This document shows, piece by piece, positions 26,343 through 34,045 of a stretch of 64,000 nucleotides of DNA. The position numbers and the translations under genes were made by a program. Each line of letters opens with the position of its first letter. The first letter of the stretch is position 1. This stretch comes from Promethearchaeota archaeon. GTDB taxonomy: Archaea; Asgardarchaeota; Heimdallarchaeia; Hodarchaeales; Hodarchaeaceae. The notes under the pieces were generated by a model. It was not told the DNA's origin. It did no database searches and saw nothing but the letters and a program-made list of their open reading frames with translations. The DNA is taken from positions 205,591-269,590 of the forward strand of contig JBHLMN010000006.1 of NCBI GenBank assembly GCA_048938105.1. The letters are read 5' to 3'.

Positions 26343-26822
26343 CTATTCCCCGAGGAATTGCATCATTTTATTTTCATGTACAACTTCTTCTTCTAAGATA
26401 TGCATCATGAGGTTGTAAGTTCGAAAATCTTTGTCTTTAGTTAACTCCATGAGTTTCACATATACCCCGATGGCACATCGTTCGTCCTCTTTTATTAACT
26501 CCGCCATCGCAGTCAAATCATTGGCATCTGGAAGCGTATTTGGATATTTACAATTCGCCTGGCGGTTGACTTCATCCCACATGACAATTGGCTGACCTCC
26601 CAATTCGAGAATTCTCTCAGCTAATTCATCAGCGTGTTCTAACTCTTCTTCTGCAATTTCTTTTACTGCATCTGCAAATTGAAAGGATCCCCTACCATTT
26701 GCGATAGTTGCTAAACTAATGTATTGAAAGTAAGCTAACCACTCATCGCAGTATGCTTTATTCAATTCTGATACTATTTCTTCTTTATTCCCCTTTACAA
26801 GATCAACACTTTTTGTACCCAT
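26343..26822 (-). CDS. DPS-like (DpsL/thioferritin) protein, bacterial-type
   Basis: DEWLAYFQY, EELEHA, ANCKYP, ERCAI, EEVVHE with the Cys pair. Likely start is the ATG at 26822, preceded by AGGAGA. Confidence 0.8.
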   Translation of the reverse strand: MGTKSVDLVKGNKEEIVSELNKAYCDEWLAYFQYISLATIANGRGSFQFADAVKEIAEEELEHADELAERILELGGQPIVMWDEVNRQANCKYPNTLPDANDLTAMAELIKEDERCAIGVYVKLMELTKDKDFRTYNLMMHILEEEVVHENKMMQFLGE

Positions 26823-26964
26823 CTTTTCTGTCTCCTTTGAAATACACAATTTATATCATTCGAATGGATTTATTTTTTTAAGCCTAGTTTGAGTGTCTTT
26901 TAATTGTCTCTACCTTACTTATTAATGTCAGTATATTTTTTTCGGAACTTCATCTTCAAAAATA

Positions 26965-27024
26965 TTGAATATTAATTAATACTTGATATTAACTAATATT
27001 CAAATCCTAATTTATTAGTTAATA
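26965..27024. promoter_or_regulatory. 17-5-17 inverted repeat plus a third copy of the core; candidate Fur/PerR operator
   Basis: TTGAATATTAATTAATA-cttga-TATTAACTAATATTCAA (1 mismatch) at 26965-27003, and TATTAGTTAATA at 27013-27024, between the divergent DpsL genes. Confidence 0.6.
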
Positions 27025-27052: not shown

Positions 27053-27610
27053 ATGACAGCAGAAGTAGCTAGAAAAATGGTAGAGAAAGCTGGAATTGAT
27101 GTCGATAAATTGTTGGAGCTATTAATTAAGAATGCAGCAGCAGAACTAACGACATATTATTATTATACCATATTACGGACAAATCTTATTGGATTTGACG
27201 GAGAAGGTTTGAAAAAGATTGCTGAAGATGCAAGAATAGAAGACAGAAATCATTTTGAGGCTTTAGTTCCTAGGATCTATGAGCTCGGTGGAAAATTACC
27301 TGATGATATGAAAGAGTTCCATGATGTTTCGGCTTGTCCGCCTGCGTATTTACCGAAGGATATTACTGATGTGAAAGAAATTGTTAAAGTCTTACTAAAA
27401 GCAGAACAGTGTGCAGTTCGAGGATACACTGAAATCTGCAATATGACGGCTGGGAAGGATCATAGAACCTATGATTTAGCTTTAGCAATCCTAAATGAAG
27501 AAATTGAGCATGAAGCATGGTTCACAGAATTTTTAGGAAAAGGGCCTTCAGGACACTTTCTCAGACCTAATGGTGTGAACAGCCCCTATGTTTCAAAGTT
27601 TCTTCATTAG
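27053..27610 (+). CDS. dpsL: DPS-like protein, archaeal type
   Basis: [66 protein letters not shown]. Confidence 0.92.
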
Positions 27611-27718
27611 AAACACATCCCCTTTTCTTCTTTTTTCTAATTCCAAATTTTTTTTTAACTGAATGTAGAATGCATAGATTAAATTCAGATTTACACCTTA
27701 ACAATATTTTAAGGACGG

Positions 27719-28108
27719 ATTACAATAAGATATACCAACCAGCGAATTACTATCTTAGATTTTCTCAAAGACAATCTTAATCATCCTACTGTAGAAGAGA
27801 TCTTTAAAGAAGTTAGGAAGAGCTTACCAAGAATAACTAAAGCCACTGTTTATAAAAACTTAGATGTTCTTACCGAAGAGGGGTTAATTAGGGAAGTCAA
27901 TGTAAAGGGAGTCTCAAGATTTGAAGCAAAGACAGAAGCTCATCATCATCTTATATGTAAATCCTGTGGGAAAATTACCGATTTTAATTCCAAAGAATTA
28001 ATAGATTATGCTTTACAATTGATACAGAATCAGAAAGATTTTAAAATTAGCACTGCAGAAACTAATTTTTATGGTTATTGTGTAGAATGTAAAAAAGATG
28101 AATTATAA
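27719..28108 (+). CDS. Fur/PerR-family transcriptional regulator (non-canonical start)
   Basis: Not in the ORF track. The frame reads ITIRYTNQRITILDFL...NHPTVEEIF...ITKATVYKNL...SRFE...HHHLICKSCG...FYGYCVEC...*. An in-frame TAA lies three codons upstream, so the start must be ATT 27719 (or ATA 27725), after AAGGA. Confidence 0.88.
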   Translation: MTIRYTNQRITILDFLKDNLNHPTVEEIFKEVRKSLPRITKATVYKNLDVLTEEGLIREVNVKGVSRFEAKTEAHHHLICKSCGKITDFNSKELIDYALQLIQNQKDFKISTAETNFYGYCVECKKDEL

Positions 28109-29678: not shown

Positions 29679-30191
29679 TTGATACTTATGGGAAAAATAG
29701 AAGAGGATTTAATGGCAGCTTTTGCTGGTGAAAGTCAAGCAAACCGAAAATATCTAGCATATGCAAAAAAGGCGGAAAAAGATGGATTTCCTCAGATAGG
29801 ACGGCTTTTTCGTGCAGTTGCTCATGCTGAGACTATACATGCTCACAACCACCTACGTGTTTATGGTGGAATTAAAACAACTCTTGAAAATATTAGGGCA
29901 GCAATAGAGGGGGAACATTATGAATTCACTAAGATGTATCCTGAATTCTTGGAGGATGCCAAGGAAGAAGGGAGGAAAGCTGCGGAACGGACGTTTGATT
30001 TTGCCAATCAAGTAGAGAAAATACACCATGAATTATATTCACGTGCGCTAAAAACGGTTGAAAGTGATAATGACCTTCCAGAAAAGCCAATGTACGTGTG
30101 TGAAGTCTGTGGTTATACGATTGAAGATGGGATCCCAGACAAATGTCCCATTTGTGGTGCCTCTCACGAGAGATTTACTAAGATAGAATAA
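29679..30191 (+). CDS. rbr: Rubrerythrin
   Basis: AFAGESQANRKY, ETIHA, EHYE, EKIH, C-terminal CEVCG...CPICG. Probable start is the ATG at 29688. Confidence 0.95.
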   Translation: MILMGKIEEDLMAAFAGESQANRKYLAYAKKAEKDGFPQIGRLFRAVAHAETIHAHNHLRVYGGIKTTLENIRAAIEGEHYEFTKMYPEFLEDAKEEGRKAAERTFDFANQVEKIHHELYSRALKTVESDNDLPEKPMYVCEVCGYTIEDGIPDKCPICGASHERFTKIE

Positions 30192-30262: not shown

Positions 30263-30826
30263 TTGACATTTGAAGACTTAGTTAATAGAAGAAGAGCATA
30301 TAGAGCATTAGAATCTGTTGAGATAACAAAGGAATTAATCGAAAAAACTGCGTATATAGCTCAATTAGCTCCCTCATGCTTCAATAAACAACCATGGAGA
30401 TATATCTTCGTTTTTGAGAAAACATTACTCACAAAATTGCAGAATGAGGGTCTTTCAACAGGAAATAAATGGGCAAAAGATGCTAGTATGATCATTGCAG
30501 TATTTTCCAGAGTTGATTTAGATTGTGTAATAGGTGACCGACAATATTATCTATTTGATACGGGAATGGCAACTGCACTTATGATTCTGTATTTAACTGA
30601 TCAAGATTTAGTTGCACATCCAATAGCAGGATTTGATCCAGTAAAAGTAAAGGAAGTCTTGGAAATCCCTAATGAAATGCATCTGATAACTTTAATAATC
30701 GTTGGGAAAAAAGCAGATAAAATTCCAGACTTTTTTGAAGACTATCAAAAGAAAAGTGAAGTAAAACGCCCAGCACGAAAACCTTTAGATGAGTTTATCT
30801 ACATGAATAAATACTTCAAAAAGTAG
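30263..30826 (+). CDS. Nitroreductase-family flavoprotein
   Basis: RRAYR, APSCFNKQPWRY, DTGMA, AGFD, RKPL. Confidence 0.9.
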   Translation: MTFEDLVNRRRAYRALESVEITKELIEKTAYIAQLAPSCFNKQPWRYIFVFEKTLLTKLQNEGLSTGNKWAKDASMIIAVFSRVDLDCVIGDRQYYLFDTGMATALMILYLTDQDLVAHPIAGFDPVKVKEVLEIPNEMHLITLIIVGKKADKIPDFFEDYQKKSEVKRPARKPLDEFIYMNKYFKK

Positions 30827-30845: not shown

Positions 30846-30986
30846 CTAGTCATTGATTCTTACAAAGTACTTTTTCGGAGCTTTACACCAAGGACAAACC
30901 CAATCGTGTGGAAGCTCTTCAAACGGAATTCCTTTTTTTTCGTCATCATATGTATATCCACACATTCTACATTCCCAAATTGCCAT
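30846..30986 (-). CDS. rub: Rubredoxin (46 aa)
   Basis: Below the ORF-track cutoff. MAIWECRMCGYTYDDEKKGIPFEELPHDWVCPWCKAPKKYFVRIND*, with AGGTG RBS. Confidence 0.92.
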   Translation of the reverse strand: MAIWECRMCGYTYDDEKKGIPFEELPHDWVCPWCKAPKKYFVRIND

Positions 30987-31233
30987 ATTTTGCACCTTGT
31001 TAAATGTTGATATTTACTGAAATCAAAACTTTGGGATTCAGAATAATATTTGCTTAGAAATAGGCTATTTTATCAAAGATTATTTGGATTAATATCTTTA
31101 ATCAGTCCATCTAATTTTTGATATGGTATAATTGATAACGAATTTCATATTGAAAAGATTATAATCCAATAAATTAATGTCATATCGAGAACCATGTATT
31201 TTATTCAAAGACTCTGATATAAGTGATGAATGA

Positions 31234-31785
31234 ATGAAATTTAATACTTTATTAGATGTCTTCAAAAGAAAAAAACAACCTCCTCAAATTCACTTAGAAT
31301 ATATCATTATCTGTCAAAATTCAGGCCAACCTATCTATACAAAATGTTGGGGGAATGTTTGCGGGATGTTGGGAAAAAAAGATGAATTAATGACTGCATT
31401 TCTAGCAGCAATTTCCACAATGCCAAGAATGTTTGCCGAATCAGATAGAAAAGTCCATAGTATGAGTATTGGATCATTAGAATTGTTATTTTCATATACA
31501 GAATCAGAAAATATTATATGCCTGGCATTTCCAATGAGGGACGTAAATAAGAACACAATGGGAATTGTAAATAATCTCTTCAAGGATATCTCTCAATTGT
31601 TAGATGAGGATTTTTCTAAAACACCCTGGGATCGATTAAACGATCCAAAAGTCCTCTTGTTTGAAAAGGAACTCCTGAAGAAAGCTATTCATCCATGGTT
31701 CCATCTTGTATTGGCAAATAATGGAGCTAAACATGAAGAGAATTGCCCAATATGCATGCCAATGATTTTACAATCATGTTCCTGA
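31234..31785 (+). CDS. Longin/roadblock-like domain protein with CWGNVC and HxxxCPxC motifs
   Basis: Beta-beta (YIIICQNSGQPIYTK), helix (ELMTAFLAAISTM), beta-beta-beta (VHSMSIGSLELLF..IICLAF), helix pattern, as in longin folds. The fold call is inference. Confidence 0.55.
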   Translation: MKFNTLLDVFKRKKQPPQIHLEYIIICQNSGQPIYTKCWGNVCGMLGKKDELMTAFLAAISTMPRMFAESDRKVHSMSIGSLELLFSYTESENIICLAFPMRDVNKNTMGIVNNLFKDISQLLDEDFSKTPWDRLNDPKVLLFEKELLKKAIHPWFHLVLANNGAKHEENCPICMPMILQSCS

Positions 31786-31860
31786 TCTACTTACTGAATG
31801 ATTGTTTTAATGTAATCTCAACAATATTAAAAAGAATATATTAAATTACGTGAGGAATAA

Positions 31861-32958
31861 ATGAAACTCAAATCCATACTAAATATTTTTAAAAAAAAGA
31901 AACGATCTAGGGGAATTAACTTAGAGTACCTCATCATTTATCAAGATTCGGGGCAGCCAATTTATTCCAAGTGTTGGGGAAATGTTTGTGGGTTGTTAGG
32001 AAAAAAAGACGAATTATTAACAGCTTTTTTAGCTGCTGTCTCCACGATGCCAGGGATGTTCGCTGAATCAGACACCAAAGTTCATAGTATGAGTATTGGA
32101 TCCTTAAAATTATTATTCTTTTATACAAAATCAGATAATATTATTTGTGCAGCATTTGAGGAGAGAGATGTCAATCCTGAAACAATGGAAATTGTAAATA
32201 ACCTCTTCAAAAGTGTTTCCTTGTTATTAGATGAAGAATATCAAGGAACTCCCTGGGATCGATTGAACGATCCAAGAGTCCAAGCATTTGAAAAAGAACT
32301 ACTTTCAAGTATAATCTACCCTTGGTTTCATGTTGCCTCATACATTAATGGAAGTTCTCATGATGAGAATTGTCCTTTATGCATGCCTACGATACTAAGC
32401 ATGGATAAAAAGCTTCCTGTCTGGGGAAGAATCAAGAATAATTATTCAACAGAGACTCAATCACTAGCAAAAGTTGAAACACAAAGCGGTTCATTGCAAA
32501 TAGGTGATCTAGCTCCTGACTTTGTTGCGGAAACTGATAGAAGTGAATCAATAAGACTTTCTGATTATCAAAACAAAAAAAATGTTGTTCTCTTCTTTTA
32601 CCCCAAGGCAAACACTCCAGGATGTATTATTGAGGCACAAGGATTTCGTGATGCCTATAATGAGCTGAAAAATCTAAATGCAGAAGTCATTGGAATCTCG
32701 GTTGACAACATTTCTGATTTGCAATCCTTTAGAAACGACCAACAACTCCCATTTCCACTAATAACTGACATTGAAAAAGATATTTCAACTAAATATGGCT
32801 GTTTAAATGACAAAGTTGGATTGGCTAAAAGAACAACTTTTCTAATCGATAAGCAAGGGAAGATTAGAAATATCTGGAAGCTTTCAGGGACGTTTGTTCA
32901 AGAACGATTGTTTCAACATGCACTTGATATTAAAAAAACTCTATTAGACTTAAATTGA
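31861..32958 (+). CDS. Longin-like domain fused to a BCP/PrxQ peroxiredoxin
   Basis: The first ~180 aa are a close paralog of 31234..31785. The C-terminal part has GDLAPDF, FFYPKANTPGC, GISVD and RTTFLID (PxxxTxxC peroxidatic motif). Confidence 0.8.
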   Translation: MKLKSILNIFKKKKRSRGINLEYLIIYQDSGQPIYSKCWGNVCGLLGKKDELLTAFLAAVSTMPGMFAESDTKVHSMSIGSLKLLFFYTKSDNIICAAFEERDVNPETMEIVNNLFKSVSLLLDEEYQGTPWDRLNDPRVQAFEKELLSSIIYPWFHVASYINGSSHDENCPLCMPTILSMDKKLPVWGRIKNNYSTETQSLAKVETQSGSLQIGDLAPDFVAETDRSESIRLSDYQNKKNVVLFFYPKANTPGCIIEAQGFRDAYNELKNLNAEVIGISVDNISDLQSFRNDQQLPFPLITDIEKDISTKYGCLNDKVGLAKRTTFLIDKQGKIRNIWKLSGTFVQERLFQHALDIKKTLLDLN

Positions 32959-32999
32959 AAATAATTTATTTTCATAATTATAATCCAGGTGATTGAAAT

Positions 33000-33983
33000 T
33001 TGGTGGGTTTATCAGGTGATTTTGATGTCATTGTTGTAGGAGGTGGCCCAGCAGGGCTGTCCGCTGGAATTATTTCTTCTCTTAAAGGATTAAATACGGC
33101 AGTTTTCGAGGGAGGAACGTGGGGAGGGCTTTTAAGCACCATATATCCTAAAAAGAAGATCTATAATTACCCTGGCACCCCTCGTATTCGGGCTGAACAT
33201 CTTGTTTCAGAGTGGGTTCGTCAAGCTGCAGATCACGGAGTGCATCTCATCAAAGAACGAATAACAAAAATATATAAGAATCTAGAAGTTGAGACTTCTG
33301 AAGGGGCAATCTATCAAGCAAAATCAATTATTATTGCCACAGGAATGAAACCGAATGAATTGGGGATTCCTGGCGAATCAAAACTCTCTAAGAAAGATAG
33401 GGGAGTATATCCTTATGTTATTGAACCAGAAATCTTTAATAATCGTCGTGTATTAGTTATAGGGGGTGGAGATACCGCTATTGATGCAGTTATCGATCTA
33501 AATAAGATTGCGCAAAAAATATATCTAGCACACCGACGAACAGAGTTCAGGGCATCAGAAACAAACTTGGAACTAGTAAAAAACGAAAAAATGGCCGACA
33601 TTCTAACAAATGTAACTATAAAAGAGATTCTTGGGCAACGTAAAGTGGAAGGAGCTATCCTAGAGGACGTTAACACTAGAGAGAAAATAGAACTTAACAT
33701 TGAAAAAGTCATCCTCGCAGTAGGGTTAACACCAAACACTGAGATTTTTCAGGATTTAGGATTAGAATTCCAAGGTAAATTCCTTAAGGCCGATGAACTT
33801 CAACGTACAAATATTGAAGGAGTATTTGCTGCAGGAGACATTGTTACTCCTTACCAGTTAGCTACGGTGGCAGCTGCTCAAGGAGCTCTAGCTGCTCATG
33901 GTGCATATCTTTATATTCGTGATCCATACTGGAAACAAGAACATATGAAAGAGAAATCAGAAATTAAACACCAGATTCTCTAA
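33000..33983 (+). CDS. Thioredoxin-reductase-like flavoprotein lacking CxxC (FNR/YumC-type)
   Basis: GGGPAG, GGLLSTIYPKKKIYNYPG, GGGDTA, HRR, FAAGD. The CxxC position reads VYPYV. Confidence 0.8.
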   Translation: MVGLSGDFDVIVVGGGPAGLSAGIISSLKGLNTAVFEGGTWGGLLSTIYPKKKIYNYPGTPRIRAEHLVSEWVRQAADHGVHLIKERITKIYKNLEVETSEGAIYQAKSIIIATGMKPNELGIPGESKLSKKDRGVYPYVIEPEIFNNRRVLVIGGGDTAIDAVIDLNKIAQKIYLAHRRTEFRASETNLELVKNEKMADILTNVTIKEILGQRKVEGAILEDVNTREKIELNIEKVILAVGLTPNTEIFQDLGLEFQGKFLKADELQRTNIEGVFAAGDIVTPYQLATVAAAQGALAAHGAYLYIRDPYWKQEHMKEKSEIKHQIL

Positions 33984-34045
33984 ATTCACTCTAATCATAA
34001 GGGCTTCTCATTTGTTTAAAAAACCCGTAAGTTGAAGTGTGAGAA

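Follow-up and report, generated by a model that had tools for sequence, protein, structure and literature searches.

A 64,000-nucleotide stretch of the genome of a Promethearchaeota archaeon of the family Hodarchaeaceae (contig JBHLMN010000006.1 of GenBank assembly GCA_048938105.1, positions 205,591 to 269,590; hereafter the window) contains two adjacent genes for proteins whose N-terminal domains are predicted to adopt the longin fold. The first encodes a protein with a single longin domain of approximately 160 amino acids (P0001), and the second a protein in which one longin domain is joined to a peroxiredoxin (P0002); neither has three consecutive longin domains. Positions are numbered from the first letter of the window, and the pair and its parts are as follows.

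31234..31785, + strand: P0001, standalone longin protein with a predicted metal site, 183 amino acids
31345..31362, + strand: first candidate ligand pair of P0001, C38...C43 (C-W-G-N-V-C), at the end of β2 and start of α1; invariant in 30 of 30 close homologs
31732..31755, + strand: second candidate ligand group of P0001, H167-x3-C171-P-x-C174, a ZAS-like HxxxCxxC motif; invariant in close homologs
31861..32958, + strand: P0002, longin-peroxiredoxin fusion, 365 amino acids
31861..32400, + strand: longin module of P0002 (residues 1-180), with the same candidate ligands C38/C43 and H167/C171/C174
32401..32499, + strand: residues 181-213 of P0002, tail helix L-P-x-W-x-x-I-x-x-x-Y (helix 187-195) and short β strands leading into the peroxiredoxin; predicted local distance difference test (pLDDT) score ~81-88
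32500..32958, + strand: BCP/PrxQ-type peroxiredoxin domain of P0002 (residues 214-365)
32623-32625, + strand: codon of the peroxidatic C255, in TPGC
32800-32802, + strand: codon of C314, a clade-specific invariant

The original prediction for this DNA, made from its letters alone, described two adjacent paralogs about 80% identical over a core of roughly 80 residues, each starting with a hydrophobic and polybasic segment and each keeping CWGNVC and a C-terminal H-x3-CPxC. All of this is borne out. The identity is 81% over residues 21-100, and 69% over the 179 amino acids that BLASTP aligns between P0001 and the N-terminal half of P0002 (E 4e-96). The N-terminal segments are conserved across the clade, with a helical hydrophobic moment of ~0.4 and net charges of +4/+6. 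A word-indexed search returned 16 standalone homologs of 182-184 amino acids and 14 fused ones (most of 361-369, including two partial sequences), each sharing over 60% identity with the window's proteins, and C38, C43, H167, C171 and C174 are invariant in all 30. C96 is nearly so; it is found in both copies and is, together with C314 of the peroxiredoxin domain, a further invariant of the clade. P0001 is made up of an amphipathic, polybasic helix (residues 2-14), the longin core (residues 20-156) and a Cys/His tail ending in QSCS, and is without the PxW...Y tail helix.

The AlphaFold2 (AF2) model of P0001, built with a 30-sequence alignment, has a pLDDT of 73.6, a predicted template-modelling score (pTM) of 0.71 and the element order β-β-α-β-β-β-α-α. 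On the AF2 models DSSP places strands at residues 23-28, 33-38, 74-79, 82-88 and 93-100 and helices at 48-68, 106-126 and 138-155. Full-length P0002, for which a deeper alignment was used, has a pLDDT of 85.8 and a pTM of 0.69, with 81-88 across residues 171-200 and a tail helix at 187-195. The best matches in structural comparison (VIA) are all longins, namely sedlin (2j3w_A, Z 12.6, root-mean-square deviation 3.3 over 133 aligned residues), TRAPPC2L (Z 12.0) and Sec22 (Z 11.8), and further down are VAMP7, σ and μ subunits of AP complexes, SRX, Lst4, CPLANE, a Lokiarchaeal longin and Mon1-Ccz1. Nearly all of the best 30 matches are longin domains, with roadblock/MglB proteins lower at Z 7-8.4. 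Foldseek gave 68 matches with E below 1e-3, every one a longin or roadblock domain, and an ESM Atlas shape search agrees. The models thus support a longin fold for the N-terminal domains of both proteins, as first proposed. A sequence-profile search of the PDB found nothing significant (best TRAPPC2, E 0.22), and a search of NCBIfam returned no family for P0001. The only curated family to match the window's longins is PF19036, the first longin domain of Fuzzy, Mon1 and HPS1, at E 0.001 (19.7 bits) and E 0.041 (14.5 bits), both below the gathering cutoff of 26.1. It also matches 19 of 42 members of a wider family, described below, at E of 0.01 or less (best 1.5e-6), and the shared region is β1-β2-α1.

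The second half of P0002 matches the Pfam family AhpC-TSA (PF00578) over residues 214-337 with E 2.2e-39. All 13 full-length orthologs have T252, C255 and R324, which gives the T-x-x-C peroxidatic motif and the conserved Arg. The best NCBIfam model (NF006960) scores 105.2 bits against an equivalog cutoff of 140, and the closest models are those of BCP/PrxQ. Position 260, the +5 position of the resolving Cys, is Q, H or E in all 13 orthologs, nor is it Cys in the more distant fusions P0055 and P0072. The domain is therefore a BCP-type peroxiredoxin with the peroxidatic Cys and without the CxxxxC resolving Cys, as had been described. Because position 260 is never Cys, the enzyme would be either of the 1-Cys type or of a type that uses C314, which is invariant in the close clade only.

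The fusion itself is real. It occurs in approximately 14 independent protein clusters from four sources (NCBI, JGI, ENA and Logan), the assemblies behind the standalone and fused homologs bearing the names Heimdallarchaeota, Hodarchaeales/Hodarchaeota or Promethearchaeota, and the two genes stand side by side in the closed 4.94-Mb genome CP070695.1 and in other metagenome-assembled genomes, so an assembly artefact is ruled out and the in-frame fusion of the original prediction stands. Among GTDB species representatives, five genomes, all from the genus of the window, have an open reading frame (ORF) of the fused size with an adjacent standalone copy; generic longin cores were matched in 379 of 399 Asgard genomes. 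Alone among the close homologs, one fused ortholog (P0029, 77% identity to P0002) carries the NCBI name 'Candidatus Thorarchaeota archaeon', probably through an error of binning or of taxonomic labelling.

By maximum likelihood, the longin domains of the clade, standalone and fused, form one group (92/90); the standalone copies are monophyletic (100/99) and branch next to or inside the fused ones. What looks like a linker in P0002 (L-P-x-W...Y) is more than that, being homologous to the tail at the C-terminus of distantly related standalone members. Only the fused copy keeps this ancestral tail, so P0001 is most readily explained as a tandem duplicate, since truncated, of the longin half of a gene that was already fused. 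The peroxiredoxin domains of P0055 and P0072 (the latter from Hodarchaeales) are 44-50% identical to that of P0002 and share its N- and C-terminal extensions, compared with 36-38% identity for the free peroxiredoxin genes of the genome. This closeness speaks for a single old fusion whose longin half evolves fast, a history that the longin tree, in which P0055 and P0072 lie on long branches apart from the window's clade, cannot confirm. A 219-amino-acid gene upstream of P0072 was considered as a tandem paralog in that lineage and rejected (hhalign probability 0.3%).

Conservation and distribution of the Cys/His site

An exhaustive phmmer search extended the family to 46 representatives, down to approximately 20% identity. 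Wherever a source is named it is Asgard (Hodarchaeales, Kariarchaeaceae or Heimdallarchaeota). The N-terminal C-x4-C is kept in about 36 of 42 members, most of the proteins contain exactly four Cys, and almost all members have four residues of the kind that bind metals. The C-terminal ligands vary, being C-x3-7-C-P in most members, H-x3-C-P-x-C in the window's clade and a few others, and H...C alone in a few. Near-invariant positions of the wider alignment are G31, P33, F56, L57, F86 and C171. The pattern is clearest in 16 members from other GTDB families (f6, f31 and f32), all of which combine C-[FY]-G-x-F-C with C-x3-7-C (mostly C-x6-C-P), 15 of them having exactly four Cys.

A constant number of ligands at shifting positions is the behaviour of a tetrahedral metal site rather than of a CPxC redox dithiol, and we infer that the Cys/His motifs form a four-ligand metal site, most likely for zinc. 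A thioredoxin-like dithiol at CPxC was judged unlikely, since the second Cys is missing in most of the family and the number of ligands is nevertheless kept. The site would hold the β2/α1 loop and the stretch that follows α3 together.

Across the wider family this site is mostly found away from peroxiredoxins. At the 16 loci from other GTDB families a peroxiredoxin gene lies within 6 kb at one, and the other genes of the island described below at none; no general link of family neighbourhoods to redox genes was found, the contexts of P0036, P0039, P0043 and P0084 being heterogeneous. On this distribution the predicted metal site is an ancestral, generic trait of the family, to which the connection with peroxiredoxin was added as a lineage-specific elaboration. 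The original prediction had cast the Cys motifs as the target that the fused peroxiredoxin oxidises. As the site spans a wider family mostly without peroxiredoxin or redox neighbours, the motifs did not evolve for that purpose. The motifs are strictly conserved, and a redox switch is no more likely than a structural zinc site.

A peroxide relay nevertheless has to be weighed. Here the fused peroxiredoxin would be the receptor for H2O2: the sulfenate of C255 would condense with a zinc-thiolate Cys of its own site or that of P0001, release of zinc would unclamp the tail and change what the longin dimer binds, and the protein would act as a stoichiometric sensor instead of a catalyst. None of the three fused lineages has the +5 resolving Cys, which would fit, as would the extra invariant Cys residues of the clade and the strong conservation of every ligand in P0001 despite its having no peroxiredoxin domain. 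Two of the three fused lineages (the window's clade and P0055) fall in the region of the tree where the H-x3-C-P-x-C variant is found, and P0072 keeps H...C only. The locus lies within a Fur/Dps/rubrerythrin island, and the genome has a second neighbourhood of longin, peroxiredoxin and flavodiiron protein. Moreover, H-x3-C-x2-C with a distal Cys is the ligand pattern of ZAS domains, described as sigma-factor-binding anti-sigma domains, and in RsrA and RslA oxidation of this site (H-x3-C-x2-C plus a distal ligand) forms a disulfide and releases zinc (PMC2877774). The same motif is, however, structural and redox-inert in ChrR (PMC2877774), so the resemblance supports zinc binding and not, by itself, redox sensing. 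Further points against a relay are that the metal site is older than the fusion and mostly found without redox context, that the distant fusion P0072 retains only H...C at its C-terminal site, that C314 could act as an internal resolving Cys in the clade, and that all conserved neighbours are detoxifying enzymes rather than signalling proteins. Because the evidence points to an inherited clamp, we find the relay less compelling and consider it unlikely, albeit deserving of serious attention.

The more far-reaching form of this idea is a peroxide-gated longin switch, in which the peroxiredoxin oxidises the zinc-thiolate clamp of a longin heterodimer, the tail is released and the heterodimer changes how it binds a small GTPase, some other partner or the membrane. 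This we regard as distinctly improbable. If true, it would be, in the archaea that are closest to eukaryotes, a direct input of H2O2 into a eukaryote-type trafficking or signalling module, for which we found no described counterpart.

Genomic neighbourhood of the pair

The features around the longin genes are as follows.

33000..33983, + strand: P0003, flavoprotein of the thioredoxin reductase (TrxR) fold, 327 amino acids; syntenic in every relative examined
30846..30995, - strand: rubredoxin, 49 amino acids; same position in relatives
30263..30826, + strand: nitroreductase-family flavoprotein; syntenic
29679..30191, + strand: rubrerythrin with C-terminal rubredoxin-like domain; syntenic
27713-28108, + strand: ORF for a Fur-family regulator (Pfam FUR, E 1.4e-29); upstream part of the stress island
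27053-27610, + strand: ferritin/Dps-like gene 2, divergent from gene 1; upstream part of the stress island
26343-26849, - strand: ferritin/Dps-like gene 1, divergent from gene 2; upstream part of the stress island

Relatives keep the order rubrerythrin, nitroreductase, opposite-strand rubredoxin, longin, longin-peroxiredoxin, 327-amino-acid flavoprotein, and then continue with a 451-amino-acid flavoprotein resembling Nox and CoA-disulfide reductase, a CBS protein and a 2-oxoacid:ferredoxin oxidoreductase. In the window the intergenic gaps are 75 bp between P0001 and P0002 and 41 bp between P0002 and P0003. Given the conserved gene order, the rubredoxin and the upstream pair of Dps-like genes and Fur ORF, the gene content marks the longin locus as part of an oxidative-stress island.

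The window differs from its relatives at two places. The 451-amino-acid flavoprotein (L004:8173-9528 in a relative, with a single cysteine in GAC42G) is absent, P0003 and the CBS gene being only 62 bp apart (33984-34045) with no such gene between them, and the DUF547 gene found upstream of rubrerythrin in relatives is missing. The Fur-family ORF was found only in the stop-to-stop listing, with no ATG, GTG or TTG start yielding 80 or more amino acids, which suggests a non-canonical start or a short upstream extension.

The spacer between the divergent Dps-like genes (about 26965-27024) contains three copies of TATTA(A/G)TTAATA together with a 17-nucleotide inverted repeat; at one mismatch or fewer this motif has 11 matches in the window, where 3.3 are expected by chance, and no match is upstream of the longin genes. 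The Fur/PerR operator-like repeat TATTARTTAATA, again at one mismatch or fewer, occurs only at the Dps promoter (26970-27024) and three other sites, with none upstream of the longin genes. A 17-nucleotide site near the longin genes at 31160-31176 was rejected as unconvincing, being an 82% match in AT-rich sequence.

The original prediction had an NADPH flavin reductase following the fusion 41 bp downstream. The spacing and the flavoprotein stand, and its role must be read differently. The prediction mentioned neither its lack of Cys nor the nearby rubredoxin gene, nor the second invariant Cys of the peroxiredoxin domain, C314. P0003 and two orthologs contain no Cys at all and have YPYV[IT]EP (YPYVIEP in P0003) where TrxR would have its CxxC, and P0003 scores 234 bits with the TrxR model TIGR01292 against a cutoff of 343. 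Being Cys-free it cannot reduce disulfides, which rules it out as a thioredoxin reductase or other thiol reductant and makes it a better fit to a rubredoxin or ferredoxin reductase. It is probably an NAD(P)H:rubredoxin/ferredoxin-type reductase, and by analogy with the NROR-rubredoxin-rubrerythrin chains known in anaerobes it most likely feeds the adjacent rubredoxin and rubrerythrin rather than the peroxiredoxin.

This neighbour raises another possibility, that the longin ligands bind iron as Fe(Cys)4 or an Fe-S centre which P0003 reduces with NAD(P)H, the longin then serving as an electron carrier or as a sensor labile to O2 or reactive oxygen species. The C-P-x-C knuckle and the 2+2 arrangement of Cys do resemble the knuckles of the window's rubredoxin and rubrerythrin, P0003 is strictly syntenic and unable to reduce disulfides, and flavoproteins of its type reduce small iron proteins. 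The cluster has, however, a genuine rubredoxin gene that is the natural substrate of P0003, a His ligand and H...C variants would be unusual for rubredoxin-type sites, and most family members have no such flavoprotein as neighbour. We also know of no thiol peroxidase that accepts single electrons from iron centres. Taken together, we give this very little credence.

A link to small GTPases, which the original prediction mentioned among the established roles of longins, finds no backing in the neighbourhood: neither the window nor the loci of relatives have a small GTPase gene in the conserved surroundings of P0001 and P0002. In such a reading the longin pair would be a minimal guanine nucleotide exchange factor (GEF) like Mon1-Ccz1, or a GTPase-activating protein (GAP) like FLCN, for an Asgard GTPase of the Arf, Rab or Rag type, and the peroxiredoxin would be an accessory. 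It has in its favour the PF19036 match, structural matches to Mon1-Ccz1, CPLANE, BLOC-3, FLCN and C9orf72-SMCR8 at Z 8-10, and one distant family member encoded about 2 kb from two Arf/Ras-like genes. Just before β2 there is a near-invariant G-x-P, where the GAP longins FLCN, NPRL2 and SMCR8/C9orf72 have a GP motif (PMC12290439), and FLCN and Lst7 also combine a longin with a putative zinc module (PMC3438538, PMC4703059). The best structural matches, however, are TRAPP and SNARE longins rather than those of GEFs or GAPs, each protein has a single longin rather than a tri-longin or longin-DENN architecture, and there is no invariant or near-invariant Arg in the close-homolog or wider-family alignment, hence no arginine finger. 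A regulator of this kind therefore seems highly improbable.

The distant member in question (P0036, ligands H...C; L010:5001-8812) also adjoins a histidine kinase, and its locus is the sole hint of a GTPase link that we saw in the family.

The window's genome contains a third family paralog (contig C50, L014:162-3133), a 156-amino-acid protein with C-x5-C-x2-H-x2-H and an SFW...LF tail and without the C-terminal Cys pair. It adjoins a peroxiredoxin and a flavodiiron protein; the locus comprises the flavodiiron protein (+ strand), a 166-amino-acid peroxiredoxin (- strand), a 157-amino-acid protein without Pfam match (+ strand) and the paralog. The group of paralog, peroxiredoxin and flavodiiron protein persists through rearrangements in three genomes of the genus. 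In another family the neighbourhood of the third paralog has a peroxiredoxin within 4.5 kb in two genomes and not in five others.

Interpretation and comparison with known systems

Whether P0001 and P0002 pair with each other was addressed by complex prediction, in one job of three runs with P0002 carrying two zinc ions. The interface score (ipSAE) is 0.51 (runs 0.53, 0.48 and 0.51) against 0.00 for the best control, with contact agreement of at least 65% and a partner pLDDT of at least 70. In calibration, 58 of 80 solved complexes passed the mark, as did 2 of 110 mismatched pairs, and scores of 0.60 or less, such as this one, are the range of only 7 of the 80 solved complexes and of both passing mismatches. 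Longin-longin dimers are common, so the prior is fair, and the models lend weak support to the heterodimer of the original prediction. In the alignment of close homologs (P0001 numbering), H153 and C182 are invariant in standalone copies only and H157 in fused copies only, and these reciprocal invariants may reflect complementary ligand sets in a heterodimer.

The reading that we tentatively prefer, with confidence a little short of even, is that of a zinc-clamped longin dimerisation or adaptor module on a thiol peroxidase without the +5 resolving Cys, in a peroxide-defence island. The C-terminal tail of each longin would be clamped to the β2/α1 loop by the four-ligand Cys/His site, most likely through zinc, and this site would be primarily an inherited structural clamp. 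The unit would serve peroxide defence, with the peroxiredoxin reducing peroxides at C255 with T252 and R324, and the longin modules would be the protein-protein interaction and dimerisation part that pairs P0001 with P0002. These modules might also dock to further partners, or to the membrane by the N-terminal amphipathic, polybasic helix. We infer metal binding and the identity of the metal, the pairing of the longins, their contact with the membrane and the way in which the neighbouring genes share the work.

Several considerations weigh against a zinc-clamped adaptor. Zinc, Fe(Cys)4 and Fe-S sites are indistinguishable by sequence, and a purely structural site leaves the extra clade invariants C96, H153, C182, H157 and C314 unexplained, as it does the fact that none of the three fused lineages has a resolving Cys at +5. 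The heterodimer is weakly supported by the modelling, where a homodimer of either paralog would probably have scored no differently. The analysis turned up no partner for the longin surface, and archaeal membranes offer no obvious peroxidation target, so that membrane tethering would have no evident purpose.

Longin domains are among the eukaryotic-signature folds, and next to nothing is known of what they do in Asgard archaea. This family offers a concrete biochemical handle on them, having a conserved putative metal site that can be measured, a fusion enzyme that is easily assayed and a defined context in an oxygen and peroxide stress island. The fusion ties a eukaryote-type regulatory fold to oxidative-stress defence, in archaea of the Heimdall/Hodarchaeales type, which are discussed more than any other group as microoxic relatives of eukaryotes. 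Should the site prove only structural, this is still a new, uncharacterised longin subfamily with all named members in Asgard, in which longin modules have been recruited to stress enzymes. Should it prove a switch, this would be the first longin under redox control, and a prokaryotic peroxiredoxin relay in one polypeptide.

Among known systems, the TRAPP longins (sedlin/TRAPPC2, TRAPPC2L and synbindin) and the SNARE longins (Sec22, VAMP7 and Ykt6) are the best structural matches, with 123-133 residues aligned. The sequence identity to these is approximately 10%, however, and no TRAPP or SNARE partners are evident at this locus; we know of no TRAPP or SNARE longin with a Cys/His metal site, a clamped C-terminal tail or a peroxiredoxin. 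Mon1, Fuzzy and HPS1, which supply the only curated sequence-family match, are tri-longin RabGEFs that act as longin heterodimers with three longin domains, whereas each window protein has one, and the window's family differs from them in its predicted metal site and its peroxiredoxin fusion. The GAP longins are approached by the near-invariant G31-x-P33 before β2, which is G-x-P and not GP.

The fusion of a peroxiredoxin to a thiol partner, or relay from one to the other, is an established principle, as in peroxiredoxin-glutaredoxin hybrids, Orp1-Yap1, Tpx1-Pap1 and PRDX2-STAT3. In these systems the comparison departs at the fused partner, which here is a longin rather than a thioredoxin or glutaredoxin fold. 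The original prediction knew of no description of a longin-peroxiredoxin fusion, and our full-text literature searches likewise found none.

With the ZAS domains of RsrA, RslA and RshA, P0001 and P0002 share an identical H-x3-C-x2-C, for which the invariant C38 or C43 could supply the distal ligand. The predicted fold here is that of a longin, however, there is no Pfam anti-sigma match, and most relatives in the family use C-x6-C-P. To our knowledge, archaea lack sigma factors.

The nearest precedent for putative Cys/His zinc ligands in a longin module is folliculin/Lst7, where an N-terminal HxCx2H...Cx2C putative zinc module is joined to the longin domain (PMC3438538, PMC4703059). The motif and its positions differ, the ligands here being C-x4-C after β2 and the motif of the C-terminal tail, there is no DENN domain, and neither the window proteins nor the wider family match Pfam Folliculin. 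The family described here offers a comparison for the unexplained putative zinc module of folliculin and Lst7.

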